A stretch of 64,000 bases of DNA, from the IMG/VR virus record IMGVR_UViG_3300037067_008629, positions 22,078 through 86,077 of that record; one strand, written 5' to 3'. How positions within the stretch are numbered: position 1 is the stretch's first letter; every line of letters begins with the position of its first letter. The position numbers and the translations under genes were made by a program. Of this stretch, positions 7,114 through 40,345 are shown one piece after another. The notes under the pieces were generated by a model, which saw nothing but the letters and a program-made list of their open reading frames with translations, did no database searches and was not told the origin of the DNA. The DNA comes from a virus. Its lineage: Duplodnaviria; Heunggongvirae; Uroviricota; Caudoviricetes.

Positions 7114-7798
7114 TACGAGTACAACCGAGGTCTAAGTAATTTGCTACGTCATCATAAGAATGTATACCCCCGCTAGCTTTAATTTTTACATTAGTTCCTT
7201 CTAAAGCTTTTTTCATAGTTAAGATATCTTGTACACTTGCCCCACGAGTACCAAAACCAGTGGATGTTTTTACATAGTCTGCACCAGCATCGGCAGCTAT
7301 GAGACATGCTTGGGTAATCTGGTCTGGAGTTAAATAACAAGTTTCCAGAATTACTTTGAGAATTATTTCCTTACTTAACCAATCTATGCTAGCCCGAGTC
7401 TCATAAATATCATCGTGTACATAGTCCACGTCACCATTTAGGAGGGCTGCATAATTCATTACCATATCTATTTCAATAGCACCAGCTTTAATAGCTAATT
7501 GTGCTTCTTCACTTTTAGTAAAAGAATCATTACACCCAAGTGGAAATCCAACTACAGTTGAAATAGGCACTCGAAATCCAGCGGCCCAATAAATATAGCA
7601 CGGATGCACACAAACTGAAGCGAAGCCATTGGCTTTCGCCAGTAAACAAGCTTTTTGCACATCATGTGGGCTTGTAGTTGGCTTTAAAACCGCATAATCC
7701 AATGCAGCCGCTATTTGCTCATTAGAATACATAAGACTCCAATTGTTCAGATATTGAATTTCCAAGGTACAGTAATACCTGGCTGAGAAGCCAAGCAA
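7076..7798 (-). CDS. deoC: deoxyribose-phosphate aldolase
   Basis: DeoC-like TIM barrel with VKIKASGGIHSYDDV, ADYVKTSTGF and the conserved Lys positions. Length is 240 aa. Confidence 0.75.
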   Translation of the reverse strand: MLGFSARYYCTLEIQYLNNWSLMYSNEQIAAALDYAVLKPTTSPHDVQKACLLAKANGFASVCVHPCYIYWAAGFRVPISTVVGFPLGCNDSFTKSEEAQLAIKAGAIEIDMVMNYAALLNGDVDYVHDDIYETRASIDWLSKEIILKVILETCYLTPDQITQACLIAADAGADYVKTSTGFGTRGASVQDILTMKKALEGTNVKIKASGGIHSYDDVANYLDLGCTRIGSSQWAELLHE

Positions 7799-8578: not shown

Positions 8579-8843
8579 TTTTCTTTGACTTCTTCTTTTT
8601 CTTTAGAAAAGGGGCATCGTCTCGAAATTGAGCTTTGACTGGCATAATCTTATGCCCCTTCATACCCCGATTATGTCGTGGATGCGCGGGGGAATAAAAT
8701 ATGTGTACTGCTGGGGCTGGAAAATGTCGCAGTACATCTAGTTTCTTGCATTTAGGGCAAGCAACAGGCTCGGGATCGTGGAAAAGAATAACATCACTAA
8801 ATACGTGCCCACATTCTTGGCAAGTAAAGTTATAATTTGGCAT
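8565..8843 (-). CDS. FmdB-family zinc-ribbon protein with a basic tail
   Basis: MPNYNFTCQECGHVF...CPKCK is the FmdB-type CxxC...CxxC ribbon. The C-terminus is KKKKKSKKND. Confidence 0.55.
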   Translation of the reverse strand: MPNYNFTCQECGHVFSDVILFHDPEPVACPKCKKLDVLRHFPAPAVHIFYSPAHPRHNRGMKGHKIMPVKAQFRDDAPFLKKKKKSKKNDGI

Positions 8844-8845
8844 AA

Positions 8846-9265
8846 TTAAGCCCCTGTTTTAATAACAACACAACGATTGGGATGCTGAAGTTTGACTACT
8901 CGATTATCACTATTCGTCCCATGTAATTTAAATACAGGGGTGGCCGCTCTGATAATCTCAATGTGACTGATAACCATATGCTGTAGCCACATATCTGAGC
9001 CTTGCCGTACTGGATAAACAACTGTGTAGCCAGTCTTAATAACATTGCCCGCATAGTCTCTTGGCTCTAAAATTTCGCCCATAATTAAATCCTCTTCACT
9101 CATGCTATGGAACTCAAATATTGTATTAGAACTGCCACATCTTAAACACTCTTCGGGTGGATGATGCTGTCTTTTTGAAGACGCCCAAATTAATCCACAT
9201 TCTTGGCATCTTCCATCACCATATTGCCAACCTATTTCATCGAACATGACTTCGTACAATTTCAA
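8846..9265 (-). CDS. zinc-ribbon hypothetical protein
   Basis: CQECG...CLRCG forms a four-Cys cluster. Length is 139 aa. Confidence 0.4.
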   Translation of the reverse strand: MKLYEVMFDEIGWQYGDGRCQECGLIWASSKRQHHPPEECLRCGSSNTIFEFHSMSEEDLIMGEILEPRDYAGNVIKTGYTVVYPVRQGSDMWLQHMVISHIEIIRAATPVFKLHGTNSDNRVVKLQHPNRCVVIKTGA

Positions 9266-9395
9266 CTAAATCTTCTAGTTCATCACTTGGTATTGGCAGC
9301 CCAGTACCACCATAGAAAAACACATCTTTCCATAAATCATAGTCAAGGGCCTCAACTATTTCACTAAGCATAACTACAATTTGATCGTCAGTCAT
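9237..9395 (-). CDS. small acidic hypothetical protein (not in ORF track)
   Basis: 52-codon ORF reading MTDDQIVVMLSEIVEALDYDLWKDVFFYGGTGLPIPSDELEDLVEIVRSHVR. Its ATG overlaps the methyltransferase stop (ATGA), and it overlaps the start of 8846..9265. Confidence 0.3.
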   Translation of the reverse strand: MTDDQIVVMLSEIVEALDYDLWKDVFFYGGTGLPIPSDELEDLVEIVRSHVR

Positions 9396-10156
9396 ACATT
9401 CTCCCATAGATTATCTTTAACTTGAATCAAACCATTCTCTTCTGCAATATGCTCGCAGTAATTTCGATCTATTTCAATTGACATACAACCTACATTGAGA
9501 CGTTTACAGACTCTCATTACAGTTCCAGTGCCACTACAAGCGTCAATCACTGCATCTTGTGTGCCGCAACTAAGTTTAATACATCGCTCCACCAGTGTCT
9601 CCCCTAGCTGGGTGGGATGCCATGCTCGTCGTTGCTTTGAGTTGCCAGTAACTCTTGGAACATCGAAGACATCGCCTGGGACCCTCCCACGGGCGTCTGC
9701 TCGCTTGTCTCCGTGCTCTTGACGCCAGGAAGGTACTCGAATAGCATCAGGATACAACTCAACGCCAGGATGCATCAAGCGAACTAATGGACGATGATTA
9801 TTTCCTAGATCATGTTGATTATGTTGCCCGAAGGTGAACGTCTGGACGCAAGCTTTAGCCAATAGTTGCTTATCTGCAACAAGCTTAGTTACAAAAGACC
9901 CCATATCAAATGTCCACTTGGCATTGTACGAGAACCATGTGATATCAGCAACCGTAGTTGACAGCCGTAGAACATATTCTAACCAAATTAAATATTCTTC
10001 AGTTGATCGTTTATCATCATATTCGCCATATTTTAGGCCGATGGCATCTGGCGGGTCCATGAATAGCATACGCCAACGAGGCTTTAACTCTCTAAGTACA
10101 CTTTCAATAGGCGAACAGACTAGACTATATTTACTCATCTGTATATTATGACACAA
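9392..10156 (-). CDS. DNA methyltransferase (beta-class N6-adenine/N4-cytosine)
   Basis: The motif IV-like MDPPD lies N-terminal to the motif I VIDACSGTGTV, which is the beta-class permutation. That order is typical of ParB-associated phage methyltransferases. Confidence 0.6.
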   Translation of the reverse strand: MCHNIQMSKYSLVCSPIESVLRELKPRWRMLFMDPPDAIGLKYGEYDDKRSTEEYLIWLEYVLRLSTTVADITWFSYNAKWTFDMGSFVTKLVADKQLLAKACVQTFTFGQHNQHDLGNNHRPLVRLMHPGVELYPDAIRVPSWRQEHGDKRADARGRVPGDVFDVPRVTGNSKQRRAWHPTQLGETLVERCIKLSCGTQDAVIDACSGTGTVMRVCKRLNVGCMSIEIDRNYCEHIAEENGLIQVKDNLWENV

Positions 10157-11405
10157 AAATGGGACTTGTCAAGGCGGATATTGGATCATCACGATATTTT
10201 AAAAGATGCCCCTGAAGAGTGGCCATACTCCACTCATTTGGTGTTCCACGCTCAGAGAATTGTTTTGCTACTTCAGGAAGTGCTGGAAAGAATCGGAGAA
10301 ATAGTTTTTTCATTTGATCTCTGGATGCATTTGCCAATTCCAGACTTAAATCCACACGCCCCGGACGAATTAAAGCTGGATCAAGAGTTTCAATATGATT
10401 TGTTGTCATAAATAGAATTCGACCTTCACTGGCCATAACACCATCTATTGCATTCAATAATCCAGAGAAAGTTACACTTTCCTTATCATCAGCTTTTTTA
10501 CGTTGAAGGAATACACAATCAATGTCTTCAATAAGTATCATGCTATTAGTTGGAATCGACGACATTAATTCTAATAAACCCTCATTACTTAAAGAATGTG
10601 AACTCAGATTCAATGTATAGATATCAAACTGAAGTGTTGAGGCTAATGCAATAACCAAGGAACTCTTACCATTTCCAGGTGCCCCATGTAATAAATAACC
10701 GCGTCGGTATGGAATACCACGATCATTATACCAACTTTCAGATTTTTGAAACAAGCAAATATCTTCTAAAATTCGATCAGACAATCCATCAGCTAGAATC
10801 ACTGATTCCATTGGCCGTGGTAGTCGTTTACCTACAGCAATCCAACTTCCATAGTCGTGGGATGCAATAGTTACTCTTGCATCTAGTGGTGGGTGATAGA
10901 CTTGACGAGCTTCTTCCAGTAAATCTAATACAATTTGTTTGTTGCGACTGAATAATGTAAAGTTAAATGTCTCATAAAATCCCAGCGCTCCGGCTCCGTT
11001 ACCACCCCCCTTGTCACTACCTTCTCGACGATCTCGACGTAACACTACCAAACGATGACGATAGAAGAAAAAATGCAGCCCTGGAGCTGGGGATAAAATA
11101 ACTTGTGGCTTTTTTAAATTTGAGTCACCAATATCATTAGTTTCATGTCGTTGCCGTTTAGTTTGAACAGTCCATAACCGACATCGCCGTTGATAAGGAT
11201 GTTGGGCTAACCATACATTTAACCACTTAAAAGCTTCATCACGATCTGGCACATCTACAACTGTTATAAGGCGTCGTTTTGTCCAGTCCCAAATATGATT
11301 AGGAACCCGACGTAAATAGGCAAATACTACACCTACAACTGCCAATAAAGCTCCCCCACTTAGGAACTGATTGCTAGACAATTGGTCTATTAATGATTGC
11401 CACAT
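10146..11405 (-). CDS. BCS1-like AAA+ ATPase with N-terminal transmembrane segment
   Basis: N-terminal hydrophobic helix (GGALLAVVGVVFAYL). Walker A is GYLLHGAPGNGKSS and Walker B is ILIEDIDCVF. The layout resembles BCS1 (membrane anchor plus a single AAA module). Confidence 0.6.
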   Translation of the reverse strand: MWQSLIDQLSSNQFLSGGALLAVVGVVFAYLRRVPNHIWDWTKRRLITVVDVPDRDEAFKWLNVWLAQHPYQRRCRLWTVQTKRQRHETNDIGDSNLKKPQVILSPAPGLHFFFYRHRLVVLRRDRREGSDKGGGNGAGALGFYETFNFTLFSRNKQIVLDLLEEARQVYHPPLDARVTIASHDYGSWIAVGKRLPRPMESVILADGLSDRILEDICLFQKSESWYNDRGIPYRRGYLLHGAPGNGKSSLVIALASTLQFDIYTLNLSSHSLSNEGLLELMSSIPTNSMILIEDIDCVFLQRKKADDKESVTFSGLLNAIDGVMASEGRILFMTTNHIETLDPALIRPGRVDLSLELANASRDQMKKLFLRFFPALPEVAKQFSERGTPNEWSMATLQGHLLKYRDDPISALTSPIFVS

Positions 11406-11738: not shown

Positions 11739-12070
11739 AATATTTCCTTTTCAATTTTAAGGTCTTTTGGTAATAGACATCGTTGCGACAGCTTAAATTC
11801 TTTTTTAATTGCCGCCTTAACTTGAGACTTAGTATGACATACAATAATACCAGATTGATCTCCAAGAGTCCATTTCCAAGTTGATGGAATTTTTGGAGGT
11901 AAATAACCCTTCGATTTTAGATATTTTTTTGCTAATCTATCCCACACAAGTCGTCTCTCAGCTTTAGTAGGAGTTCGTGGGATAACTTGATGTAAATTAA
12001 AAAATTCTATCCGAGAGAGTCGGAGTGTTGTTGTTCTAACATTACCCATATGTAATTGTCTCCGATACAT
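11735..12070 (-). CDS. hypothetical protein
   Basis: 111-aa basic ORF. Confidence 0.35.
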   Translation of the reverse strand: MYRRQLHMGNVRTTTLRLSRIEFFNLHQVIPRTPTKAERRLVWDRLAKKYLKSKGYLPPKIPSTWKWTLGDQSGIIVCHTKSQVKAAIKKEFKLSQRCLLPKDLKIEKEIL

Positions 12071-13510: not shown

Positions 13511-13794
13511 AGTAGCCTCTCAATCAAAAAAGTCATAAGACTGCCAACTAGAATACCTAAGCCAACCCACCAAAACTTCGGTTGTTTTGATTTTTGTATT
13601 GGTCTCACCGATAAATAGAAGGCATATAAAATATACCAAGTACCATATGTTGGATGTGACCACAAGCTCTTATAGGCTAATTTGATCCATCCTTTGCTAT
13701 ACAAAAAATTTTGTATATCCATACAATATAAATTTTCTTGTTTAATCCTCTGTCCATGTTCGCATGTATCGTGCGTCTTTTGGTATGGCGTCAT
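13507..13794 (-). CDS. small membrane protein
   Basis: 95 aa with a C-terminal hydrophobic helix. Confidence 0.35.
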   Translation of the reverse strand: MTPYQKTHDTCEHGQRIKQENLYCMDIQNFLYSKGWIKLAYKSLWSHPTYGTWYILYAFYLSVRPIQKSKQPKFWWVGLGILVGSLMTFLIERLL

Positions 13795-14842
13795 CAGATA
13801 GCTCCCTATATTTAAAGGTGACTACTTGACCATGTGTGAAATATTTACCTTCAATCCAGCTAGGTGTATCACTACCAGGATTTTCAATTGCCCAGTTACG
13901 AGCTTTTTGGTTTGAGAATTTACGTTCCTCGTCAGTAAGCCCAGCTAATTCTAATCTCTTACCTTTAAAATCTAAGATTAAAGCACCAATTTTTCCAAGT
14001 AATTTAGAACCTTTATCCGTTTTTCTACCAGATGTAAATCCGATAACAGTTCCTTCTGCGTCAGAATAGGGCTTATACTTTAAAACTCCATAAGAACGAG
14101 TTGGCGTCCAAATACTGTCCGGTCGTCGTAACACTACTCCTTCTCCACCATTTGCAACTATTTTCTCCAATTCATGCTCGACCACAGCTTGTGCATTAAT
14201 TTCAGGTAGCCGTCGTTGCCGTAAAAGATAAATTTGTCCTTCGGATGGAAGTGCTTCATTTAATATAATTAACACATCTTCAAAAGTTGTTCCAAAAGGT
14301 AGAAATCTATAGTCCTGTAACAAACTATCAGGTTGTTTATTTAACCAACGACGAACTACATCTAACGACATATTTAATTTCATGTTGGCATTATTGATGA
14401 TTCCATCTGCAAAAATACTCTCAAATGGTGGGCTATCAATAATAGCAAATTCAATCTGTTCCCAGTCTTTTGTTGGAACATCACACGCACATATTGAGCG
14501 ACATAATTGAAAAGTACCTGGACCAGCCCAAAGTTCACCATCCAATGGTAAACATGGTAGTTGATTCAACCACCAATCTGGAGCAATAATAGGGTTGCCA
14601 TACCGTGACCACAGCCCAGTTGAAAAGGGTTTAATTTTTGCTTTTTTCCCACCAGTTTTTGGATTGGTGATATTTGCCCATGGTATCTGATCCGTTGATA
14701 AGCCACGACTAATACCACCATCCCAGAAACAACGAGTACCATCGAGTTTCTCAGACACATAGCATCCAGAGATATCATGTTTCTCTGGAATATACTTATG
14801 TGCCAACATTAAAAATTCACGTTTATTTGATACTCGTACCAT
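13742..14842 (-). CDS. ATP-dependent DNA ligase
   Basis: Motif I is KxDGxR (VSEKLDGTRCF). Length is 366 aa, typical of a minimal phage ligase. Confidence 0.75.
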   Translation of the reverse strand: MVRVSNKREFLMLAHKYIPEKHDISGCYVSEKLDGTRCFWDGGISRGLSTDQIPWANITNPKTGGKKAKIKPFSTGLWSRYGNPIIAPDWWLNQLPCLPLDGELWAGPGTFQLCRSICACDVPTKDWEQIEFAIIDSPPFESIFADGIINNANMKLNMSLDVVRRWLNKQPDSLLQDYRFLPFGTTFEDVLIILNEALPSEGQIYLLRQRRLPEINAQAVVEHELEKIVANGGEGVVLRRPDSIWTPTRSYGVLKYKPYSDAEGTVIGFTSGRKTDKGSKLLGKIGALILDFKGKRLELAGLTDEERKFSNQKARNWAIENPGSDTPSWIEGKYFTHGQVVTFKYRELSDDAIPKDARYMRTWTED

Positions 14843-23848: not shown

Positions 23849-24075
23849 CCTCTGTTTCTCGTTCTAGCCAATCCACTGCCATAATAAAGTCGATTATTTG
23901 CATATGAACTCCTCATATTAATTTTCCCCGCTGATTCGCACTGCTGGCTCAGCGGTCGGCCTTTTTATAGGTTTTACTGCCATGGTCTAGTAAAACCAAA
24001 TCCAGAGTTGAAGAATATTCTCCGTTTATAAAAGGCTATCTTAGACGTGAGTTTTATTCCTTTTCTCTGGGTTAG

Positions 24076-24149
24076 CTCCAAGGGCAGGACTCGAACCTGC
24101 AACCCGACGGTTAACAGCCGTCTGCTCTACCGGATTGAGCTACCTCGGA
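24076..24149 (-). tRNA. tRNA-Asn (anticodon GUU)
   Basis: Folded by hand from the minus strand: acceptor TCCGAGG/CCTTGGA, D-arm GCTC-AATCCGGTA-GAGC, anticodon stem GACGG/CCGTC with loop CTGTTAA, T-arm GCAGG-TTCGAGT-CCTGC. Length is 74 nt and CCA is not encoded. Confidence 0.8.
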
Positions 24150-24677
24150 TTACCCTTTCCACGATACTGGGCATGGTACCACAATCTCCCCGTTCTTAAT
24201 AAGACCTAAAACTTTAATATCTTCATCTGATTCTATTAAATCTCGGTTGTTTGCAAACCAATCAATTATAGGGATTAGTTCTGGATAAGTTTTTTCAGCC
24301 CTATCTTTACAAATCTCTACGTCAGTGTCGATTATCTGCATGTATCTAGTCCACAAAACATCTTGTGAACATTTAAAATCATCACGGTTTTTTCTCTTCA
24401 GAGAGGTTGCATCAAGAATAACTACCTTATGTCCAGCAAGAAATAATGATCTCACCATTGTACGTGCAGTGGCCCAAATTTCGTGCTCAATTGGTCCCCA
24501 CCATCGCATACCAGTTTTAGCAAGCCGGATAGCATCAGGGCAAACAATTGGATATCCTTGTGCTAGTGCCCAAGTAGATTTACCAGAACGTGGCAAACCT
24601 ACCATCATCACTAACATATTGTCCTTGCTATTTGGATTATATATCCCAACATCACAACTTCTATCGGCTAGTATCAT
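24150..24677 (-). CDS. polynucleotide 5'-kinase (T4 Pnk kinase-domain-like P-loop protein)
   Basis: Walker A MMVGLPRSGKSTWA closely matches T4 Pnk GCPGSGKSTWA. Length is 175 aa. It sits directly beside tRNA-Asn and a phosphoesterase and RNA ligase lie just upstream. Confidence 0.55.
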   Translation of the reverse strand: MILADRSCDVGIYNPNSKDNMLVMMVGLPRSGKSTWALAQGYPIVCPDAIRLAKTGMRWWGPIEHEIWATARTMVRSLFLAGHKVVILDATSLKRKNRDDFKCSQDVLWTRYMQIIDTDVEICKDRAEKTYPELIPIIDWFANNRDLIESDEDIKVLGLIKNGEIVVPCPVSWKG

Positions 24678-24846
24678 TTTTCAACCAACTCTATTACCAA
24701 GGTATTAGTCAATTCTTTTTTACTATTACTAACTTCACAAGAATAAATTAAATCAATATCGTCATAGTATCTATCATCATACACAAATACTTTAACAGGC
24801 ATGTCGCTAGAGTATTCTTGTAGCTTTAAAATTAATTCACTAACTG
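24674..24846 (-). CDS. small hypothetical protein (not in ORF track)
   Basis: 57-codon ORF reading [31 protein letters not shown]. Its stop overlaps the kinase start (ATGA). Confidence 0.3.
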
Positions 24847-26142
24847 TCATATTCCAACCTCGTCCATTAATGCAATTTTATAACGTTGTGGACCTTTTTG
24901 TTCGTCATCAGTTTTAAGACTAACAGGTAAACGCCAAGTTATACCATACTTGGAATTTATTCCATGCACAAGTTGCTTAGGTTCCGAATAGCCACTAAAT
25001 GCATTGTAACTATAGGCATCAGTAGCAACCCAAGCTCCATTCACCAGTAACTCGCCATCTATATCGGTAAGAGTAGTTGGTCGGTGGAAGTGGCCGCAGC
25101 AGTAATAACGTATATGCGTATTCATTGCTTGATTCAAAGCCATGATACGTCGCTGACGGCGTTCCATTCCATACCACGGAATTCCCATAGTTGATTTGAT
25201 ATCGTCGCCATGGAAGCACTGAAACCCAACTCCTCCAATATCAATATTGATACTAAATGAATCTGGAATAACAAAATTAATATTCTTAATATCTCGGCAG
25301 TGCATACGAGCGGTTTCGGCAACCAAATAATCCCAATTGTCATGGGCACCATGGTAGTCCTTTTTAATCGAACGTCTTCCATGGTTTCCAGGAACATAAA
25401 CTACATTTACTGTCTCAAAGTATGGTGCCAAATCCCGATACATTAAGGAATGGAGTTCACCGATAGCAAATGAATTCTTGAACATATTCCTAAAATATGA
25501 TCGCTGATTGGCATTATGAATTTCGCCACTCGTATGATCCCCATATGCAAGGACAGTCAGTGTAGGAAATACAAACTGAGGTGCTAGCGTCTGTTGTGTC
25601 CACTTTAATACTGTATCGACATAATGTTCAGCCCGCCGCATACTAATTGGAAAATTGTACCTTTCCAAACCACCACATTCAGATGGATTTACAATCTGGT
25701 CATGGTGCCCATCACTAATATGCATAACTAGATGTTCTTCAATATGCTGGTCCTTTATAAGTTTACGTTCAATTGGCGGGACAGTCTTTAATCCAGACAT
25801 TGGAACGACAATACGTTCCATTTCTTCAACAACCGTCTTAAATAGACCATGTGTCTTAGTCATAGCCTTCACTTGTCGTTGCTTCACATTCCGTTCATCC
25901 TTTAGATGCATTACTTCCGCTTCTAAAGTTAAGACTCGATCATCCGGATCAAGATTTTTTAATTGACCCCCGCTCTTCTTCTGTGGAACTGCAATATCCA
26001 CTTGCGACCAAGCTCGTCCAGTCGCAATATCAGAAATTAAGGATCGACTGACTTTGAATCTTTGAGCAATTTGAGGCTGGGTCAAAGTTCCATTAATAAG
26101 TAATTCCTTGATACTTCTTACTTTTTTAGGATTTAATTTCAT
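24847..26142 (-). CDS. calcineurin-like metallophosphoesterase with N-terminal HTH
   Basis: Metallophosphatase motifs are present in order: HISDGHHD (DxH), [15 protein letters not shown] (GNH), CFHGDD and CGHFHRP (GHxH). The N-terminus has an HTH ([24 protein letters not shown]). Confidence 0.6.
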
Positions 26143-26280
26143 TTAGATTTCCTTAAATATTGTTGTGCAATTTTTAATAATTTTATGTTGTCTTTAAAGG
26201 CCCCTAGACCAATATTACACTTTTCGCATAACAACCCCCTAATCTCTCCTGTTTGATGATCGTGATCCACGGATAATGCT

Positions 26281-26499
26281 TTATTTAAATTGGCGGCGTT
26301 GTGCTGGATGCTTTTTGTATGATTGTTGGGCAGCTTTCTGTGAACACTCTTTACACCACCAATCCAATCCGTCTTTCCTTGCCGTATTTTTATAAAATAA
26401 ACAAATACGTTTACGTTTTCTACAGTGTTTACAATACTTGGTTTTTATTCCAGTGGTTAATTTAATGGAAGTCACTACGTCTAATCTCCAAATAATCAA
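26281..26499 (-). CDS. small zinc-ribbon protein
   Basis: CKHC...CKEC (CxxC...CxxC) in a 72-aa basic protein. Confidence 0.35.
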
Positions 26500-27561
26500 C
26501 CGACACTGCTTTTAGAATTAATCGACCACCGAGAATCGGACTAAAAGTTTCGGTCAAAGGGGTAATCACGACACCTTCACGACCTTTAAAAGCTGATCGC
26601 ATATGTACCTTATCACCAATAATAGTGTCTCCATCCACAAGTTGTTCTACCACTTCATAATCAAATGGCCCAGTATATAGTAGAGGAACTAATGGGATAC
26701 AAAAACGAGTAGTATAATAGACAATTTGATCCCAGTTTAAGTAAGTACCATCGACTGAAATATCAAATAATGCATAACCATCGGCACCAAATCTACCGTA
26801 GTCCATAAATTGGACCTTGGAACCATAAATTTCTCCGAATGCAATCACATTCTTTCCACCATCAGAGATACACCGAAGCATATCCTTCATATTGGATGTA
26901 AGTGGATTCCAATAAATAGACGGATGCTCCAGCTTATCAAGAGACTTCATTGAACATTTATGTGACCCACACATAAATTCATTGTCAATTAATCCAACAC
27001 GCGAATTAGTACCGTGAATTTTTTCGGTTAAACGCACTGGCGTTCCAAGTGGAATTGCATTCCGATACTTAGAATTTCGATAATTTTGAATATCTGTATA
27101 GATGTGAATCGGGGATCATTCTTGGCATTATCTCCAACTCTAAACCATTCTGGTTCTGGTGGTTCATATTTAACACCATGAAAACGATCCGTAAGATCAG
27201 TTCCAGCTTCCACATCTACTTTAATTGTGTCACAGATATCACGCCTCTGTGCAGGCACCAAGAACCCAAATGAAGCTGCCCCACGTAAACGAATAGCACC
27301 TACTCGACACCTAGATTTTTCAGAATCTCCCGGATAAACTGCATCTTTGAGATAATTCTCAACTCCGAGTTGTACAGCTACTTTAGGGGGTATGAGTATG
27401 TCTGGTGGGAAGTGGGCAACAACATCGCCCACTTGATACTTACCTTTTGTTTCACAAGTTTGATAGGCACCAATCTTAACAATTTCTAATTTATCTGCAT
27501 TAATGTGTGGATAAATGGCATCAACTTTAACAGCCAAAATACTCAAATCACTCATGCGCAT
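26462..27561 (-). CDS. Rnl2-like RNA ligase with N-terminal tRNA-binding-like OB domain, interrupted by a frameshift at the C4 run 27112-27115
   Basis: Downstream frame: DIQNYRNSKYRNAIPLGTPVRLTEKIHGTN aligns to the T4 Rnl2 N-terminus [33 protein letters not shown], with motif I KIHGTN. Motif III is AFGEIYGSKVQ and motif IV is EGVVITPL. Upstream frame 27028..27561: ILAVKVDAIYPHINADKLEIVKIG resembles the Myf/EMAP tRNA-binding OB domain. The two frames join if one C is added to the cccc run (minus strand) at 27112-27115. Confidence 0.6.
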
Positions 27562-29147
27562 CCTCCAATTAATTTATCAATAGCATTAACAAAATCTTCA
27601 ACTCGATCCCCACCAACAAGATGCTCGAAATCAATGGTGTTGGCTTTCTGTACCATTGCCTCTAAGCTAGTGTTGTCTAAAATCAACATTTTAGCCACTT
27701 CAGTATACTGCTGGTAACTAGTAGTAACTAATTCATCCATACCAGCCCTACGTAGCAAATAAGATGCCGCTCGATTAAACCATTGAGTACCTTCTAACGT
27801 AACTACTGGGCGACCACACCAGAGAGATTCCAGTATTGTATTATAGCCTCCAAAAGGATAGCTGTCAACTGAAAAATGACAATTTGCCAGAACTTCCATG
27901 TACTTCTCATATGGTAAGTTAGGCACTATCGTTATATTCTTTCCAAAATACTCTAGCATTGACATACGTACAGGTATTGATGCTTGATATCTATGGATTG
28001 GATGCCCTGGCATAAAAACTAAATGTGCCCCTACTGCTTGAAGTTCCTTTAAACATTGAAACATTGGTATATTATATTTGATTGCGCTCCAAGGCACTGC
28101 GACTCTAATTTGATCTGAAAGTGATGCTTTTACTTTAATTGTAGGCAAAACCGGTAATACACCGCTTCCTGGAAGTAGTATTAAGTTTTCAGAATAATTC
28201 TTTTTCCAATCTAATACTTCAACTGATTTTCCAGACAGAAAATAATCAATTTGATTACCCCTACCGGATACAGGATGACCATGGCAAGCAACCTGCACCG
28301 GTGCTAGCCTCATATTGGATAGATAAATAGACTCTGCTGTTAATCCAATATCTAAAAATAAAGCCATACCAAAAGTTGTAGTTTGAATCTCTGATAAATC
28401 TAATCCCCGATCACTTACAGATACTTGTGCAACATTTTTAAAAATAGATAAATCCGCTGTCGCATCAATTGGGCCTAAATGAACCAGTGTGAGTTTATAT
28501 TTTTCAGCTAAAGCATAGACAAGTTTTCCTATTGACTTCGCTACAACATGAGTTGGTTTCCAATTACTGGTGACAATAGCAATATGTTTAAGATTGGGCA
28601 CATTATCTGGTGTTGGTAATGTAAAACTCTTATTAAATTGTCTCTTTACTTTTTGGGCGGTATTTGATGAAAAATAATCCGACCAAAAATAAGCCTGCGT
28701 ACTTTGAGGGAGAAATACACAACGTGGATGAATATTTTTATAATGAGATTCAATATTTTTCTGAAGATTAGTATCTGTACAACCAATAATTGGCAAAATA
28801 TATTGAGCAAACCATAAAGATGCTAAATTTCTATCATGTTTAAAAAATTGTCGTGAATCCATGCTGTCTCTATTTCGTCCTGTATAGAGAAACATTTGTT
28901 TCACTGGATCATCAAATAAATTGAGCCACTGATCCGTTGTTTTATATGGAGTGACTGCAACTATATTTGCATAAATATGACTATAAGTTAGTAGCTGATA
29001 AGCCTCATCTTTGGGTACATCCTGGTCTTTAAGAATCTCTAAAACACCATCGGCTGCTTGAATAAACATCCCAAGAATCTGGCCATCAAGTTTATTGATA
29101 CCAACACGAGCAAATGGATCAAGTATAGCCTGTATCTGTTCAATCAT
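27552..29147 (-). CDS. GT41-family (O-GlcNAc transferase-like) glycosyltransferase, paralog A
   Basis: DSYPFGGYNTILESLWCGRPVVTLEGTQWFNRAASYLLRRAG matches the OGT C-terminal catalytic signature ([38 protein letters not shown]). MRLAPVQVACHGHPVSGRGNQIDYFLSG parallels [27 protein letters not shown]. No TPR region is obvious. Confidence 0.6.
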   Translation of the reverse strand: MIEQIQAILDPFARVGINKLDGQILGMFIQAADGVLEILKDQDVPKDEAYQLLTYSHIYANIVAVTPYKTTDQWLNLFDDPVKQMFLYTGRNRDSMDSRQFFKHDRNLASLWFAQYILPIIGCTDTNLQKNIESHYKNIHPRCVFLPQSTQAYFWSDYFSSNTAQKVKRQFNKSFTLPTPDNVPNLKHIAIVTSNWKPTHVVAKSIGKLVYALAEKYKLTLVHLGPIDATADLSIFKNVAQVSVSDRGLDLSEIQTTTFGMALFLDIGLTAESIYLSNMRLAPVQVACHGHPVSGRGNQIDYFLSGKSVEVLDWKKNYSENLILLPGSGVLPVLPTIKVKASLSDQIRVAVPWSAIKYNIPMFQCLKELQAVGAHLVFMPGHPIHRYQASIPVRMSMLEYFGKNITIVPNLPYEKYMEVLANCHFSVDSYPFGGYNTILESLWCGRPVVTLEGTQWFNRAASYLLRRAGMDELVTTSYQQYTEVAKMLILDNTSLEAMVQKANTIDFEHLVGGDRVEDFVNAIDKLIGGCA

Positions 29148-30901
29148 TGAATAATAACTGGAGTCTTATTAGGTAGTGGATGATTTGCGATAATATAGTC
29201 GATTGCTTTAACAAAATATTGAGGTTCATCAGTATCCAACAATAAGTTCTTTAAACGATTAACATCAACTAATTTATCTCTTTCTTCTTTAAGAACTTGT
29301 GGATTATCCAAGAGTGCTAAAATTTGTTCTTCGCACATTTCAATACTTGTGGTGGATAAATCTACTCCAACCCGTCTCGCCAAAGCTGTTGACGCCCTAT
29401 TATAGAACTTATCACCTTCAATAGTCACAACAGGGCATCCAGCAAAGAACGAGTCTACAATAGTATTATAGCCACCAAATGGATATGAATCAACAGTCAG
29501 ACTTCCTTGTTCCACCTTAGCGAGATAATCCTGATATTCAAGATTAGGATAAATCGAAACCTGGCCACCAAAGAGTTCTTGTAGTTCTCGACACATAATT
29601 GGAAAATTATTATAGCGAGTACATGTCCATGATGGGAAAAATTGATAGTGTATCTTTAATTTAGATTTTTGTTGAACATTTCTTAGCATCTTCAACATCG
29701 GCCAATTAATTTTAGCTGTTGTCCAGCAACAGTTAATATAAATTATATCTGTAGCCTCTGGATAACGACGTGTATATTTAGGATCAACTGGATGCGCACC
29801 CAATCCTGGAATCAAAATTAGATGCTCACTATAATTATCTTGAGCTAATTCAATTTTTTCAGAGTCAATCCCACCAATAAAATAGTCTACAAATGAACCA
29901 TATGTGCTTACAGGATGTCCATAACCACAAACCATAATAGGAGCAAGTCTTGTATTTGCAAGAAAAACAGATTCGTCTGTCATTCCAATATCAGGAAAGT
30001 ATGCCAATTCAAAATCATTTTTCTTAATAGCAGTTAAATCATGTTTCTCCATTCCAGCATGAACCTGAACAACTTGTTTAAATAGAGACCTATCTATTCT
30101 ATCCATTTGTGCTTTACTTGAACAGACTAGAGTTAAGTCATACTTTTGTGCCAGAGCTGCGATCTGAGGATAACTACTTTTATAAACTGCCGTAACTGGA
30201 ACCCATTTATCTGTGATGATAGCTAGGCTTCCTTTTCGAGGCACACTAGTTATTTTATGCAAGTTAGAAAATTTCTTAACTTGTTGATTGCACCATTCTT
30301 TAATGGGTCGCTCATTAATACCTGAATATGAACATTGAAAATACATAGGTTGAACACGACTATCAGGTAAATCAAGTTCTGGTAAAAATTCAACTAGGTG
30401 TTTAATCATATTTTTAGTTAAAAATTCAGACGTGCCTCCAGGAGGGGCAGTAGAAAAATTATTCCACCATAAAGTTGCTAGTTTAGGATTGGGCGTAACT
30501 AGTGCTTTAGTATTAATTCCAATATCATTTCTACACGTATACAGAAATAATAATTTTGCATAATTTCCTTCTTGGTATATTAATGCTCTTAGTACACCAT
30601 CAGTAGTGCGATGGCCAGATATTGCCACTAGATTGGCAAATAAATGATTAATACCGATAAACAATGGAATCCAGTTGTCTGGGAATCTGAAATCTTCTTG
30701 CAGCATTAAAAAGAAAACAAACTCCACAAAAGAATCTATTCGCTTTATATCTTCTTTTCCAAAAGAAGCATAATTAACATCATTGCAATGCTTTAGTATT
30801 GCAAATATATCTTGACAAAGCTTATCGTATCTCTTCTGTGTATATAGTGTCAAAGCATACCGAGTATCAAAAGCCGGAAAATTAGTAATTGATGTATTCA
30901 C
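29144..30901 (-). CDS. GT41-family (O-GlcNAc transferase-like) glycosyltransferase, paralog B
   Basis: DSYPFGGYNTIVDSFFAGCPVVTIEGDKFYNRASTALARRVG and RLAPIMVCGYGHPVSTYGSFVDYFIGG carry the same OGT catalytic-domain signatures and are clearly paralogous to 27552..29147. Confidence 0.6.
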   Translation of the reverse strand: MNTSITNFPAFDTRYALTLYTQKRYDKLCQDIFAILKHCNDVNYASFGKEDIKRIDSFVEFVFFLMLQEDFRFPDNWIPLFIGINHLFANLVAISGHRTTDGVLRALIYQEGNYAKLLFLYTCRNDIGINTKALVTPNPKLATLWWNNFSTAPPGGTSEFLTKNMIKHLVEFLPELDLPDSRVQPMYFQCSYSGINERPIKEWCNQQVKKFSNLHKITSVPRKGSLAIITDKWVPVTAVYKSSYPQIAALAQKYDLTLVCSSKAQMDRIDRSLFKQVVQVHAGMEKHDLTAIKKNDFELAYFPDIGMTDESVFLANTRLAPIMVCGYGHPVSTYGSFVDYFIGGIDSEKIELAQDNYSEHLILIPGLGAHPVDPKYTRRYPEATDIIYINCCWTTAKINWPMLKMLRNVQQKSKLKIHYQFFPSWTCTRYNNFPIMCRELQELFGGQVSIYPNLEYQDYLAKVEQGSLTVDSYPFGGYNTIVDSFFAGCPVVTIEGDKFYNRASTALARRVGVDLSTTSIEMCEEQILALLDNPQVLKEERDKLVDVNRLKNLLLDTDEPQYFVKAIDYIIANHPLPNKTPVIIQ

Positions 30902-32060
30902 AAAGTATCCCTTCCTGTAAAATTAGAAGTTTTCGGTATTTGATTCCACGATATTCAATATCTAGTTTAATATCTTTAGCCCGCCACGGTGTTGTAATAA
31001 CAATAATTGGATCAATAAGAGTATTTAGTATATCCGGTGACTGAATTTCTTGACCTGTTCCAGGAACAAACTTACCAACTTTATGTACATCTGAATCAAC
31101 CACCAACGGATAATTAACACTATCAATCCCATAACTGTTTAAAAAGGCCGCACTTTTACCAGTCCCACCCCAAAAAACTAGCGTCTTACCCTGCTGCCTT
31201 ATTTCTTCTAATTGTCTTCTAACCGTACTAATAGAATCTTTAGCACCGATACCAAAGGCTTTAGCTGTGTCATTATAAAACTGTAATGGCACACTATTAG
31301 GTGTGAAAAAACCAGCAAGTACTTCGTTACCGTAGTATCTATTTATATCAAGGGTTGAGTATCCAGACTGAGTAAAGAGTGTCTGAAAACTGTTTGAAGT
31401 AAAATTAGATACATGCTCGTATAAAAAGTCAGAAATTCGGCCCAACGCTAATGAGTTATCAAAGCACGGAACTTCGACCAAAACAATTGGTGATAAATTA
31501 TATCTACTACACCAGTAGGCTATTTCAGATAAAAATTCTCTCGGCCTATCCATATGTTCAATAACATGTCGGCATACAAGTAAAGATGGTCTAAATCGAG
31601 CTAAATCACGCTCTGGAATAAAATAATCTCTAAAGACCGAAAAATTTTTAACTTGGTCGCCTTCGATTCCTGGCTCATAACCAATACAAGAAGCAGTGGG
31701 TACAGTACCGAGCAGACGGGTGAAAAATTGTCCATCACCACATCCGATATCAATTGCTATGCCATTTATCCAACGTTCCTTGTATGTATGGAGTTTATTG
31801 ACTAATATTTGCATATGAGTCTGCCACTCTGGTCCGCTATTATACATCAAATTAGAATCTTCAGCATAGGGGACTTGTGCATAATTAAAATTTGCATTAA
31901 AAACATGTCCACAGAATGAGCACATGTGAAAATTCATAGGAAACCTGAGCGCATTCTGTGCCATAGCGGCCGATCTTGGTAAATTTAGAGCGGCCAATGG
32001 TTGAGGGCCTGGATCAAAGATTTTCTGGGTTAATCTGCTACCACATACTATACATCTCAT
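30882..32060 (-). CDS. SAM-dependent sugar C-methyltransferase-like (zinc-ribbon + class I MTase + C-terminal domain)
   Basis: The N-terminal CIVCGSRLTQKIFDPGPQPLAALNL matches the zinc-binding N-domain of sugar C3-methyltransferases (TylCIII/NovU type). Motif I is IAIDIGCGDGQF. The ~390-aa size fits that family. Confidence 0.55.
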   Translation of the reverse strand: MRCIVCGSRLTQKIFDPGPQPLAALNLPRSAAMAQNALRFPMNFHMCSFCGHVFNANFNYAQVPYAEDSNLMYNSGPEWQTHMQILVNKLHTYKERWINGIAIDIGCGDGQFFTRLLGTVPTASCIGYEPGIEGDQVKNFSVFRDYFIPERDLARFRPSLLVCRHVIEHMDRPREFLSEIAYWCSRYNLSPIVLVEVPCFDNSLALGRISDFLYEHVSNFTSNSFQTLFTQSGYSTLDINRYYGNEVLAGFFTPNSVPLQFYNDTAKAFGIGAKDSISTVRRQLEEIRQQGKTLVFWGGTGKSAAFLNSYGIDSVNYPLVVDSDVHKVGKFVPGTGQEIQSPDILNTLIDPIIVITTPWRAKDIKLDIEYRGIKYRKLLILQEGILCEYINY

Positions 32061-32626: not shown

Positions 32627-34205
32627 ATTTAGGATGATTTTCAGGACTAAACCAGTTTTGATGCTCGTCGTAAAATTCAGTTTGTTGAGTCGTATAATCC
32701 TTACCTATCCGAGTCTGAACGGCTTTGTAAGATAAAGTATACTCTAAGTATGTTGAAGGTACATACAAAGTATCAACTACACCACTGTAAATAAATGCAC
32801 ACCATGCATGCTCATAGCATCCTCTCAGGCCACCACAAACTTCGTCTTCTAAATCTCCCCCAGTCCAGTACCAAGTTAAAGTTTCAGGAGCACCCCAGGA
32901 ACATGGTTCGGTACAAGTTGGTGGTGCTGCGTCACAACGATGAATTGATGTACGATCAAAAGTTCTAACAGTTTGGTCTATTAATAAATCATCTGCTTGA
33001 TCGTAGGATAAAAATGGAGTACCATTAGGACTTAAACTAATCGTCAATCTGGTTGTTCTGTCAAAAGCAGAGTCATATTTATCAATATAAATTGAAGGCC
33101 GTAGTCCACAACCTTGATGATTAGTATATTTAAGACATCCTTTACTATTATAAGTACAGTCTGTCATATATGATGGCAGCGCTGCTTCACATAGACAGTC
33201 GTCAGTATTAGCATAAGCCCTAGATAACTCTGCTATTGTACTATCAGACTTAGGGTTGAACCATTTCCACCAATTAAATTGCAGACCATAAATAAGGGGC
33301 AATGCCCATTGCATTCCTTGCCACTCAGCAGGTAAACGAGTTTGAAGTAAGACACAAGCGGCCATGTTTTCGGCTGCATCATTATCGCAGGCTGTTCTAG
33401 CTGGTTCTATTTTATTAAATTCAGTAAGATACTCATCATGCTTAGTATCAATGATATTTTGTTGGTCTTGAGCCTGGCTTCCCAAGTCACAAATCTGGAT
33501 TCTCAAAGCTTCGCATTGTGGAATATCTTCTTCTGCTGGTGCAGTGTCACAATCTAAACTAAGGTACTCAGCGATAGCAGCATCAAGTTGTGGTAAAATA
33601 TCTTCATCTAAAGTTGCTTGTTCCTTAGCCAACTGACAAGCTTTTTGTTGTGTAGCATTAACAGCTTGAATAAATTCGTATTGTTTTTGACGGGCTGTTG
33701 TATACGTATCGCAGATTTTATTCCAACTAGTAACATTTGTTCCCTCCAGTGGCGGATACCAAACTCCTGTATAAGTATCAGTAAACCAATCCATTCCAAT
33801 ACAATAGTAACACACGCCACCAGATACTATACCACAATGCTCTTCTGTACAACATGCGTCTATAGTGGTCCAGCCAACTCGTTCTGTCGCCACATCCACT
33901 TCGACTGGTGTACACTCTTCACAATCACACCACATGTCCGAAATTTGTTCTTCAATTTCGTCGATAATTTCATAGTGCCAAATTTCAAGGTCTTCTGTAA
34001 ATGAAATATCAGGACAAGACTCAATCATCTTATTACGAACCTCAGTAACATCATCCTGAGCCCAAAGATGAGGGTCTTCTACTTCTTCTAATGGATCAAT
34101 GGGCGTACATCCTTCGGGAGGATTAGCCAATTTGTCATTGATATCCTGTATCAATTTATTCCATTGGTCAATACTAAATGGCCCTGAATCATAGTAGCTG
34201 CTCAT
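32598..34205 (-). CDS. large Cys-rich hypothetical protein
   Basis: 535 aa, more than 35 Cys and acidic. I recognise no enzymatic motif. Confidence 0.45.
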   Translation of the reverse strand: MSSYYDSGPFSIDQWNKLIQDINDKLANPPEGCTPIDPLEEVEDPHLWAQDDVTEVRNKMIESCPDISFTEDLEIWHYEIIDEIEEQISDMWCDCEECTPVEVDVATERVGWTTIDACCTEEHCGIVSGGVCYYCIGMDWFTDTYTGVWYPPLEGTNVTSWNKICDTYTTARQKQYEFIQAVNATQQKACQLAKEQATLDEDILPQLDAAIAEYLSLDCDTAPAEEDIPQCEALRIQICDLGSQAQDQQNIIDTKHDEYLTEFNKIEPARTACDNDAAENMAACVLLQTRLPAEWQGMQWALPLIYGLQFNWWKWFNPKSDSTIAELSRAYANTDDCLCEAALPSYMTDCTYNSKGCLKYTNHQGCGLRPSIYIDKYDSAFDRTTRLTISLSPNGTPFLSYDQADDLLIDQTVRTFDRTSIHRCDAAPPTCTEPCSWGAPETLTWYWTGGDLEDEVCGGLRGCYEHAWCAFIYSGVVDTLYVPSTYLEYTLSYKAVQTRIGKDYTTQQTEFYDEHQNWFSPENHPKYDNRHEDYC

Positions 34206-34735
34206 ATTAGTCTCTCCATAACTTCATCAAGACTAATAGGACGCCATTCTCCGATAAGATTGAAAATATTATCCACACTCACATCAATTGATCTTCGATT
34301 AGGAAACCATTGATTAAGTTGATTTTCCATAGACCCATGGCAATGCCCATATAGATGTATTCCGCCGTGATGTAGAGCGTCCCAAGATATCATAGGATAA
34401 TGCAGCATATGAATCTTCTGTCCATTGAACTTCTTACATAGCATATCCTGGAAAGTTGAACAATGCTGTCGAAGACTACTACTATCGTGGTTTCCACGCA
34501 CTATATGAAGCTGTTTAACTTTTAGCCTTTGTCGGTAATGACCAGCTTTACTTGCTGACCAACAAAAGTCTCCAAGATGATAAAGTATATCATCTGGCCG
34601 AACAACTTGATTAATATTATCAATTAACTGTGCGTCCATTTCTTCAAGATACTCAAATGCATTTAAGCGCGCAGATTGATGCAGCAAAATGCCCGTATGT
34701 CCGAAGTGCGTATCTGAAGTGAACCAAACTGTCAT
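34202..34735 (-). CDS. metallophosphoesterase (YfcE/MPP-like)
   Basis: VWFTSDTHFGH (DxH), LGDFCW (GD) and VRGNHD (GNHD). Length is 177 aa. Confidence 0.6.
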   Translation of the reverse strand: MTVWFTSDTHFGHTGILLHQSARLNAFEYLEEMDAQLIDNINQVVRPDDILYHLGDFCWSASKAGHYRQRLKVKQLHIVRGNHDSSSLRQHCSTFQDMLCKKFNGQKIHMLHYPMISWDALHHGGIHLYGHCHGSMENQLNQWFPNRRSIDVSVDNIFNLIGEWRPISLDEVMERLI

Positions 34736-39423: not shown

Positions 39424-39761
39424 GCTAATTTGCCTCCATGACGGTATGAGCGTGTCTTATTATATTCTAATTTTAATCTAAGAGCTTCTTCCAAAGGAAT
39501 GTTAAACTTGCCACAAGTATCGGCTACTCGAATCAAAAGATCAGCAAACTCCACAGCGATCCCTTCCGGCTTGTCATCCAAATTGTATACCATACTATAT
39601 TTGTCCAAACCGTGCTTTCGATACTCCTCCATTACTTCGGCTAATTCTGTTACCATTAACATTAACTTTTCGCCAAAATTAATTTCTTTATCCCACCAAC
39701 CTTTTTCTAAGGCTGTAGTATAAGATTGTTGAATTAATTCTTGTATTGTCATGGATACCAT
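39420..39761 (-). CDS. mazG: MazG-like nucleotide pyrophosphohydrolase
   Basis: All-alpha NTP-PPase acidic motifs: MLMVTELAEVMEE and GIAVEFADLLIRVAD. Length is 113 aa. Confidence 0.55.
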   Translation of the reverse strand: MVSMTIQELIQQSYTTALEKGWWDKEINFGEKLMLMVTELAEVMEEYRKHGLDKYSMVYNLDDKPEGIAVEFADLLIRVADTCGKFNIPLEEALRLKLEYNKTRSYRHGGKLA

Positions 39762-40225
39762 ACCTTTCCATCAAATAGATTTTGGCAATAACCTAGTTTT
39801 CCATACCACCAAGTATATGTCACACCACTGGCTTCAAAAATCTTCTTAGCCAACTCAGTATCTTCTCGCCAACGGTCTGGTGTCATTTCCAAAGCATTCC
39901 CATGGCAGACTACCTCTTTAATACCTGAAAGAACAATCGCACGAGCACAATCACAACAAGCAGCCCATGGACAATACATGGTAGCACCTTCTAAAGATAC
40001 TCCCTCTTTTGCTGCCTTAAAAATTGCGTCTCGTTCCGCGTGTTCAATAATTTTGTACTTTAATGCTCTGTCTGTTAAATCAAAATTATCTAAACCAGGA
40101 GGTAGGTGATTCCAGCCCATAAACATATGAGATTGGGTTAAGATAATGGCTCCAACCTTCGTACTAGGGTCAGGGCTATAAAGATGTGCAATTCGATATG
40201 CAGATCGTAAATTATTCTTGTTCAT
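39749..40225 (-). CDS. dCMP deaminase
   Basis: HAERDAI is the zinc-binding H-A-E motif and YCPWAACCDCARAIVLSGI is the PCxxC motif. Confidence 0.75.
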   Translation of the reverse strand: MNKNNLRSAYRIAHLYSPDPSTKVGAIILTQSHMFMGWNHLPPGLDNFDLTDRALKYKIIEHAERDAIFKAAKEGVSLEGATMYCPWAACCDCARAIVLSGIKEVVCHGNALEMTPDRWREDTELAKKIFEASGVTYTWWYGKLGYCQNLFDGKVWYP

Positions 40226-40272: not shown

Positions 40273-40345
40273 GGCCACCAGAAGGAATTGAACCCTCAAC
40301 ATTCGCAGTACAGGTGCGATGCTCTGCCAATTGAGCTATGGTGGC
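40273..40345 (-). tRNA. tRNA-Thr (anticodon UGU), with C at position 33
   Basis: Hand-folded: acceptor GCCACCA/TGGTGGC, D-arm GCTC-AATTGGCA-GAGC, anticodon stem TCGCA/TGCGA with loop CCTGTAC, T-arm GAGGG-TTCAATT-CCTTC. Length is 73 nt. Position 33 is C rather than U. Confidence 0.65.

Follow-up and report, generated by a model that had tools for sequence, protein, structure and literature searches.

The 64,000-nucleotide window analysed here, which covers positions 22,078 to 86,077 of the IMG/VR record IMGVR_UViG_3300037067_008629 (a virus of the Caudoviricetes), carries on its minus strand a compact island encoding an RNA ligase, a metallophosphoesterase, a P-loop kinase, and a tRNA-Asn. The reading we prefer, held with some but no great confidence, is that an accessory ligase and kinase, accompanied in certain relatives by the nucleotidyltransferase RlaP, form an island around a core phosphoesterase, with a decayed HNH endonuclease between ligase and phosphoesterase and a ligase that is broken as sequenced. 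The region thus looks rather like a patchwork of two accessory repair genes, one unrelated clade-core gene, and one HNH wreck. The first-pass annotation of this DNA had proposed a three-enzyme RNA repair cassette of the bacterial Pnkp type; this proposal is upheld only in part, since the middle enzyme and the tRNA turned out to be clade-wide fixtures of a replication block. The features of the island are as follows.

27561–27028, minus strand: open reading frame (ORF) with the OB domain of the ligase, 177 aa
27037–26462, minus strand: ORF with the nucleotidyltransferase domain of the ligase, 191 aa
26499–26281, minus strand: Cys-rich ORF of 72 aa from the ORF list
26293–26445, minus strand, frame -2: N-terminal zinc-ribbon remnant of an HNH endonuclease (listed ORF 26281–26499)
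26270–26139, minus strand: ORF of 43 aa from the ORF list, not named in the first-pass annotation
26148–26288, minus strand, frame -3: C-terminal remnant of an EndoVII-type HNH endonuclease (listed ORF 26139–26270)
26142–24847, minus strand: metallophosphoesterase with a helix-turn-helix (HTH) domain, 431 aa
24850–24674, minus strand: ORF of 58 aa with no assigned function, matching phrog_5861 (unknown function) at 8.7e-5
24677–24150, minus strand: P-loop kinase, 175 aa
24149–24075, minus strand: tRNA-Asn(GUU), called by ARAGORN and by Rfam (RF00005, 66.7 bits)
27868–27840, minus strand: sigma-70 consensus TTGACA-17-TATAAT, 12/12 match

All the genes named in the first-pass annotation are present on this one strand. 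Its ORFs are real, but the ligase occupies two of them, and the 43-aa and 58-aa ORFs (26139–26270 and 24674–24850) had been omitted. The genes are tightly packed, with ATGA start/stop overlaps; the 58-aa ORF overlaps in this way with both its neighbours, the phosphoesterase and the kinase, and the kinase stop codon abuts tRNA-Asn. A 55-aa homologue of the 58-aa ORF (11802–11969) precedes the kinase in the related locus L007. No convincing minus-strand terminator was found between the ligase start and tRNA-Asn.

The neighbourhood of the phosphoesterase was mapped in 42 IMG/VR loci, with the ligase and the kinase scored within 10 kb of it. The phosphoesterase is present in all 42, is located 5′ of ParB–PolA wherever these genes are within range, and usually lies just 3′ of a methyltransferase–glycosyltransferase pair. 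The ligase, by comparison, occurs in about half of the loci, usually directly 5′ of the phosphoesterase. In about 18 loci the phosphoesterase (50–62% identity) is found with neither ligase nor kinase within this distance; in three of these contigs, L036, L042, and L047, the ligase is 12–30 kb away from it. The phosphoesterase, then, does not co-vary with the ligase and the kinase across genomes. Judging by this synteny, it is a clade-core gene of a replication/recombination block that also includes tRNA-Asn, ParB, and PolA, and not a dedicated partner of the ligase and the kinase in RNA repair, as had been assumed.

The same applies to the tRNA gene. That a tRNA-Asn(GUU) lies beside the cassette has been confirmed by ARAGORN and Rfam, while its proximity had been taken as a hint of a link between repair and tRNA, which does not stand. 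Among relatives that lack both ligase and kinase there, L020, L024, L026, L033, L038, L039, L042, and L047 have tRNA-Asn(GTT) 3′ of the phosphoesterase, and L044 has it 5′; in many relatives tRNA-Asn is located between the phosphoesterase and PolA, often together with tRNA-Thr(TGT). The kinase seems to be an insertion that separated the phosphoesterase from tRNA-Asn. Since the tRNA-Asn site is thus a matter of ancestral synteny, the adjacency provides no evidence of a repair–tRNA link. The window contains exactly two tRNAs, Asn(GUU) at 24075–24149 and Thr(UGU) at 40273–40345, and the Asn/Thr pair recurs in L004, L016, L037, L038, L039, L042, and L047. Beside tRNA-Asn/tRNA-Thr in L038 (15118–15979), ARAGORN also makes tmRNA-like calls, which overlap and may be false positives.

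In contrast to the phosphoesterase, the kinase is a scarce gene, found in 9 of the 42 IMG/VR loci, with further copies in L004 and L051; wherever it is present in these relatives (L004, L005, L006, L007, L011, L012, L019, L037, L045, and L051), the ligase is present too. Its position is variable: it may follow the phosphoesterase or PolA, or lie between the glycosyltransferases. RlaP (PF10127), likewise always with the ligase, is found in L001, L007, L009, L019, and L037, and L007 has the row ligase, HNH, phosphoesterase, kinase, RlaP. Five unrelated phage contigs, too, have RlaP close to an Rnl5 ligase. RlaP is an RNA-ligase-associated nucleotidyltransferase of the Pol-beta type, and its association with ligases has been published (PMC7824862, PMC12776372); both papers credit the RlaP-associated ligase modules to Burroughs & Aravind 2016. 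The five relatives listed above resemble these modules in carrying RlaP near the same ligase; the window differs in that tRNA-Asn directly follows the kinase, with no RlaP at the site 3′ of the kinase where L007 has one, the only place in the window where RlaP was sought. In phages, all three components (Rnl5 ligase, polynucleotide kinase, and RlaP module) are of kinds already known, and the island is a partly decayed example from an uncultured clade. In L045 (11307–11754) the kinase match is in two overlapping tblastn pieces, which may mean another frameshifted island gene.

Several observations weigh against the view of an accessory ligase–kinase pair around an unrelated core gene. The kinase and the ligase co-occur in a single subclade only, in part perhaps through common descent; Rnl5 loci outside this subclade lack both this kinase and this phosphoesterase within 6 kb; and a distant kinase homologue, in L053, adjoins a dCTP deaminase gene with no ligase nearby. 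Moreover, the ligase and the phosphoesterase are immediate neighbours in most ligase-bearing relatives, so a functional link between them may exist.

The phosphoesterase protein agrees with its earlier description as a calcineurin-like metallophosphoesterase with an N-terminal HTH. An XRE-like HTH is followed by a coiled-coil and then by the metallophosphoesterase domain, whose five motifs (D144xH146, GD202, GNH254, H311, and GH351xH353) are invariant in 34 homologues. Metagenomes hold 883 homologues, with 59–89% identity among the 120 listed; within the clade identity is 50–89%, and the whole-length matches among BFVD models are phage proteins of 400–480 aa. A profile search of PDB gave HTH proteins as the sole matches. 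By fold, the best structural match is MJ0936, with a resemblance to PolD-DP1 and Mre11 as well, and the fold is nearer to DP1/Mre11 than to the lambda-phosphatase-like domain of Pnkp. The phosphoesterase domain matches phrog_284 at 3e-38, a family labelled ‘exonuclease’, ‘DNA polymerase II small subunit’, and ‘DNA repair exonuclease’; we know of no characterised member of it. The cultured-phage members of phrog_284 differ from the window protein, sharing only about 23% identity with it, and it is the window protein that has the XRE-like HTH. The distant relative in S-CBS1 adjoins genes for exonuclease VIII and RusA, and that in Dagobah adjoins genes for a putative exonuclease and endonuclease VII; among the annotated neighbours of the cultured-phage relatives, no RNA ligase was found. 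Most likely, the phosphoesterase is a DNA-directed phosphodiesterase or nuclease. Because of its independence and the recombination-type neighbours of its relatives, RNA 3′-end healing by this protein is rated as possible but unsupported.

These data bear directly on the heal-and-seal scheme, according to which the phosphoesterase would remove 2′,3′-cyclic or 3′-phosphates, the kinase would phosphorylate 5′-OH ends, and the ligase would seal them, the whole reversing the damage done by anticodon nucleases with tRNA-Asn as the target or a spare. All three enzyme classes are indeed present, tightly packed, and probably co-transcribed; the ligase adjoins the phosphoesterase in most relatives that have it, and L007 shows the full row with RlaP. 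The binuclear metal site of the phosphoesterase is intact, and MJ0936, its best structural match, is a generic phosphodiesterase. We nevertheless consider this scheme unlikely. The phosphoesterase does without the ligase and the kinase in those roughly 18 loci and is far from the ligase in three of these contigs; its HTH is of the DNA-binding type, its fold is closer to the DP1/Mre11 exonucleases than to the Pnkp domain, and its cultured-phage relatives keep company with recombination-type nucleases and no annotated RNA ligase. In addition, the position of tRNA-Asn is ancestral, Rnl5 enzymes are described, in the accounts cited below, as sealers of duplex nicks, and the ligase in the window is frameshifted. 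The lesson is a cautionary one: three enzyme classes in a row resembled a Pnkp cassette, and comparative genomics showed otherwise.

The known repair systems share with the island only a general plan. Bacterial Pnkp/Hen1 and Pnkp1–Rnl–Hen1 (Pnkp of C. thermocellum, Pnkp1 of Capnocytophaga) embody the same idea of kinase plus phosphoesterase plus ligase. The island enzymes, however, are separate small proteins and not three domains of one polypeptide; the Hen1 2′-O-methyltransferase is missing from the island, the ligase is of the Rnl5 type and not a Pnkp ligase domain, and the phosphoesterase is neither of the lambda-phosphatase type nor specifically linked to the ligase and the kinase. T4 Pnkp with Rnl1/Rnl2 likewise combines a phage 5′-kinase with an ATP-dependent RNA ligase, and the nucleotidyltransferase core of the island ligase is related to that of Rnl2. 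Here too there are differences: the island kinase has 175 aa and no fused HAD 3′-phosphatase, the ligase does not have the C-terminal domains that define Rnl1 and Rnl2, and in contrast to T4 Pnkp and Rnl1, which counter PrrC, the island has no known anticodon-nuclease context.

The ligase was correctly taken for an ATP-dependent RNA ligase but was called ‘Rnl2-like’, and this assignment has to be replaced: by its domain and profile matches it belongs to the Rnl5 (DraRnl/NgrRnl, TIGR02306) family, also designated DRB0094-type. In Pfam, one ORF of the interrupted gene (26462–27561) matches RNA_ligase PF09414 at 6.6e-18 and the other the OB-fold PF21189 (PHA02142) at 2.6e-6; the OB part also matches the phrog_968 RNA ligase (1.5e-16). 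Single-sequence PDB searches with the ligase, the phosphoesterase, and the kinase gave nothing significant, and the structure matches for the ligase and the kinase come from family profiles. The ligase profile aligns with NgrRnl of Naegleria gruberi (PDB 5COT), the structural exemplar of Rnl5, through both domains, 10–350 on 12–337 of 340, with an E-value of 5.9e-14, while the match to T4 Rnl2 (2hvq, 1.8e-10) is limited to the nucleotidyltransferase core, Rnl2 residues 2–163. Among NCBIfam models, TIGR02306 (RNA_lig_DRB0094) is matched at 1.1e-40 over positions 7–339 of 341, with 139.5 bits against a curated cutoff of 151.15, which makes the protein a borderline, divergent member; the Rnl2 model TIGR02307 gives 1.9e-4 and 21 bits against a cutoff of 197. 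Close relatives are named ‘RNA ligase (TIGR02306 family)’ by JGI, and full-length homologues are found in 163 cultured-phage records, including PAK_P1-like phages, CcrColossus, and phiM12.

In the repaired 366-aa numbering, the ligase motifs are I, T179-E-K181-I-H183-G184; III, FGE244; IIIa, FD267; IV, E329-G; and V, K351. T179, K181, H183, G184, E244, F266, D267, E329, G330, and K351 are invariant among 17 clade ligases and are kept in the window. As in DraRnl (DRB0094) and NgrRnl, an N-terminal OB domain precedes the nucleotidyltransferase domain and there is no C-terminal appendage, the protein ending 15 residues past motif V with no further domain. Membership in Rnl2 was rejected on these grounds, the N-terminal OB being present and the Rnl2-specific C-terminal helical domain absent. 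From the typical Rnl5 the window ligase differs in its interrupted frame, its TIGR02306 score just under the cutoff, and 11 residues inserted in its OB domain as compared with its closest relative, L046. The proposed Myf/EMAP-like extension corresponds to a real OB domain, and the extreme N-terminus does have sub-threshold profile matches to the tRNA-binding OB folds of MetRS-C and YgjH; the idea of dedicated tRNA targeting, however, is not sustained, as this OB is the N-domain that defines the Rnl5 family. Raymond & Shuman 2007 (PMC1807946) described the N-terminal module of Rnl5 as a putative OB fold and likened it to the B2 domain of PheRS; they also pointed out an Rnl5 homologue in Aeromonas phage 44RR2.8t.

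What Rnl5 ligases do is described, in the abstracts of PMC1807946, PMC4408790, and PMC5397189, for few enzymes. The characterised ones seal duplex nicks with a 3′-OH(RNA) and a 5′-PO4; Mn-dependent nick sealing is mentioned there only for DraRnl and NgrRnl, and sealing of a broken anticodon loop is not reported in these abstracts for a characterised Rnl5 enzyme. D. radiodurans becomes more sensitive to ionising radiation when DraRnl is lost (same three sources), and the physiological role of Rnl5 is still called uncharted in the abstract of PMC5397189. A clade in which Rnl5 repeatedly occurs together with a kinase and RlaP is a natural system in which to ask what Rnl5 repairs.

In the window the ligase is split, with the OB part (27561–27106) and the nucleotidyltransferase part (27105–26462) in different frames and the 5′ frame running to a stop at 27028, so that no uninterrupted ligase reading frame exists. 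Alignment with the intact, 90%-identical gene of L046 reveals a 1-nt deletion between 27105 and 27106 (CGATTCCATATC in L046, CGATT-CACATC in the window). With one C restored, the gene encodes a protein of 366 aa that reads ...NDPRFHIYTDIQNYRN..., in agreement with every homologue, and that aligns without gaps across the junction with 16 clade orthologues. Motif I (TEKIHGTN) starts at residue 4 of the second ORF, from which it follows that both ORFs were once one gene. As sequenced, the island is unable to make a full-length ligase. Strong purifying selection acted on both sides of the break: dN/dS values against L046 are 0.045 and 0.064 for the two halves, and past the break the window lineage has 9 nonsynonymous and 53 synonymous changes. 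Purifying selection on both halves, together with the intact genes of the relatives, implies that the deletion is either very recent or a sequencing error.

Programmed -1 frameshifting was considered as a way to read through the junction and was rejected: GAT CCC CGA TTC ACA contains no X XXY YYZ slippery heptamer, about 930 homologues are all single ORFs, and L046 simply has one C more. When the OB ORF was looked up by exact match, from either of two alternative starts, no independent assembly with the same split ligase was retrieved, and an exact look-up of the kinase retrieved only a 656-bp contig; a near-identical intact ligase was not found in the protein collection either, the best match being 83%. 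With no independent assembly to hand, a sequencing error and a real mutation are indistinguishable.

The ‘small zinc-ribbon protein’ of the first-pass annotation exists as a Cys-rich ORF, but it is the N-terminal stump of a decayed EndoVII-type HNH endonuclease. L007 has an intact EndoVII-type HNH gene (182 aa) at the same site, between the ligase and the phosphoesterase. The N-terminal remnant in the window matches residues 3–53 of this protein (57% identity) and the C-terminal one residues 134–180 (74% identity); residues 54–133, and with them the CxxC of the HNH domain, have been lost. Accordingly placed profile matches are seen for the two ORFs: the 72-aa ORF also matches N-terminal parts of EndoVII/HNH phrogs, and the 43-aa ORF matches Endonuclease_7 at 1e-14 over profile positions 42–82 of 82 only, so that no complete single-frame HNH/Endonuclease_7 domain with both Cys pairs is present. 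In the closest relative, L046, there is no insert, and the ligase–phosphoesterase spacer is 13 nt. By these alignments, the site between ligase and phosphoesterase once took up an HNH homing endonuclease, which has since been internally deleted.

Inteins and homing endonucleases have repeatedly targeted the ligase gene. In L006 (IMGVR_UViG_3300037067_017894, 7880–9991), whose phosphoesterase is 89% identical to that of the window, the ligase orthologue is a 703-aa ORF with a 350-residue insertion inside motif I (EKVHG|CVTSQ...VVTHN|SNSRVG). With Cys first, His-Asn last, and Ser following, the insertion reads as a putative intein. The ligase of another relative, P0248, contains a Pfam intein domain.

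The kinase (24150–24677) had been described as a P-loop polynucleotide kinase with the motif SGKSTWA, and this identification is supported by matches to AAA_33 (1.7e-8) and to phrog_505 ‘polynucleotide kinase’ (5.7e-9), as well as by the Pnkp1 profile match. The P-loop is GLPRSGKSTWA (G27-x4-G32-K33-S34-T35), followed by a DxxR motif, D48-A-I-R51, by D89, and by the lid arginines R98 and R126; across the family R51, D89, R98, and R126 are invariant and D48 is present in at least 90%. The closest structures are polynucleotide kinases, and the best PDB profile match (1.4e-4) is the kinase domain of Pnkp1 from the Pnkp1–Rnl–Hen1 repair complex, whose DDFRL pairs with DAIRL of the window protein. 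The structure model has a single domain, and Pfam and phrog scans found no HAD 3′-phosphatase domain in the kinase or the adjacent ORFs. The protein is thus predicted to be of the stand-alone polynucleotide 5′-kinase type. It may instead be a nucleotide or DNA-modification kinase, to judge from the dCTP deaminase neighbour of the homologue in L053. A 5-hydroxymethyl-dU DNA kinase of a hypermodification pathway was also considered; however, among the scanned ORFs of the window, which is only part of the genome, there is no thymidylate-synthase-like hydroxymethylase or pyrophosphorylase.

From the gene identities and the co-occurrence of the kinase with the ligase, we infer that the two cooperate in those relatives in which the ligase is intact. 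There, the kinase would convert 5′-OH ends to 5′-phosphate, RlaP, where present, may restore a lost nucleotide, and Rnl5 would seal duplex-held 3′-OH/5′-PO4 breaks, for example, a nick in a tRNA stem or in some other structured RNA. No dedicated enzyme for the removal of 3′-phosphate or cyclic phosphate can be assigned in the island.

Elsewhere in the window, a small metallophosphoesterase of 177 aa is encoded at 34202–34735 on the minus strand, next to a Peptidase_C92 gene (Metallophos, 1.1e-8; phrog_547 ‘phosphoesterase’, 2.4e-46; aq_1665/1XM7, 2.9e-12). Its occurrence within 10 kb of the core phosphoesterase is almost confined to ligase-bearing relatives, a distribution that may reflect common descent. 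It can be regarded as a candidate for an alternative RNA-end phosphoesterase.

The location of the block directly 5′ of ParB and PolA raises another explanation, namely, a role in DNA replication or repair, with the phosphoesterase trimming DNA ends or flaps, the kinase acting on 5′-OH DNA, and Rnl5 sealing nicks with a ribonucleotide on the 3′-OH side, as in RNA-primed or ribonucleotide-containing DNA. T4-type polynucleotide kinases also act on DNA, and the phosphoesterase fold resembles the polymerase B-subunit/DP1 and Mre11. The window further encodes a DNA ligase, a Holliday-junction resolvase-like protein, a primase-helicase (DUF5906), and a DnaQ-like exonuclease. The published accounts of Rnl5 add the sealing of duplex nicks with an RNA 3′-OH strand and the radiation sensitivity that follows the loss of DraRnl. 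Against this stand the RNA-repair-linked RlaP, which joins the ligase and the kinase in relatives, and the fact that ligase and kinase are dispensable accessories, whereas the replication genes are core. The phage also has that separate ATP-dependent DNA ligase (13742–14842), so the RNA ligase is not its sole ligase. A DNA role for the whole block, therefore, seems doubtful to us.

Returning to the accessory ligase and kinase, one specific function may be put forward, although we regard it as quite improbable: Rnl5, the kinase, and RlaP could serve as a counter-defence against PARIS-like Toprim tRNA nucleases, through spare tRNAs plus resealing of stem nicks. AriB of PARIS nicks tRNA in the anticodon stem, between nucleotides 40 and 41, leaving 3′-OH/5′-PO4; this product belongs to the substrate class of Rnl5, so that no 3′-end healing would be needed. 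tRNA-Asn and tRNA-Thr are two of the three tRNAs cut by AriB (PMC12409363), and in the clade tRNA-Asn(GUU) is widespread, often with tRNA-Thr(UGU) alongside. If true, this would be the first physiological role for phage Rnl5 ligases.

As for expression, the perfect sigma-70 consensus lies within the 3′ end of a glycosyltransferase gene, some 280 nt ahead of the start of the ligase. It is a possible promoter for the block from ligase to tRNA, only a lead, since shuffled sequences have in total no fewer promoter-like sites than the region does. The window as a whole has the dense gene packing of a phage and about 38% GC. In a DNA search against cultured phages the tRNA was the sole match, which means that there is no close cultured relative.

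Directly 5′ of the ligase and the phosphoesterase is a module, conserved across the clade, of two paralogous GT41/HMW1C-like glycosyltransferases (NF049992 protein N-glucosyltransferase, 5e-36) and a methyltransferase with domains of the C-methyltransferase type (Methyltransf_13/14/23), all on the minus strand (27552–29147, 29144–30901, and 30882–32060). Its target could be protein or DNA modification. A set of nucleotide-metabolism genes (46734–47246 on the plus strand; 4406–5401, 5648–6061, 6061–7113, 7076–7798, and 39749–40225 on the minus strand) includes a dATP/dGTP diphosphohydrolase N-domain (MazZ/DatZ-like, 6.7e-21), an IMPDH/GMP-reductase-like protein, a phosphoribosyltransferase, a nucleoside 2-deoxyribosyltransferase fused to HNH_3 and AP2, a DeoC aldolase, and a dCMP deaminase, which is a hint of a non-canonical purine or other DNA base modification. 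Finally, a BCS1-like AAA ATPase, to our knowledge not a usual phage gene, is encoded on the minus strand at 10146–11405 (BCS1_N at 2.8e-32, AAA, and AAA_lid_BCS1).

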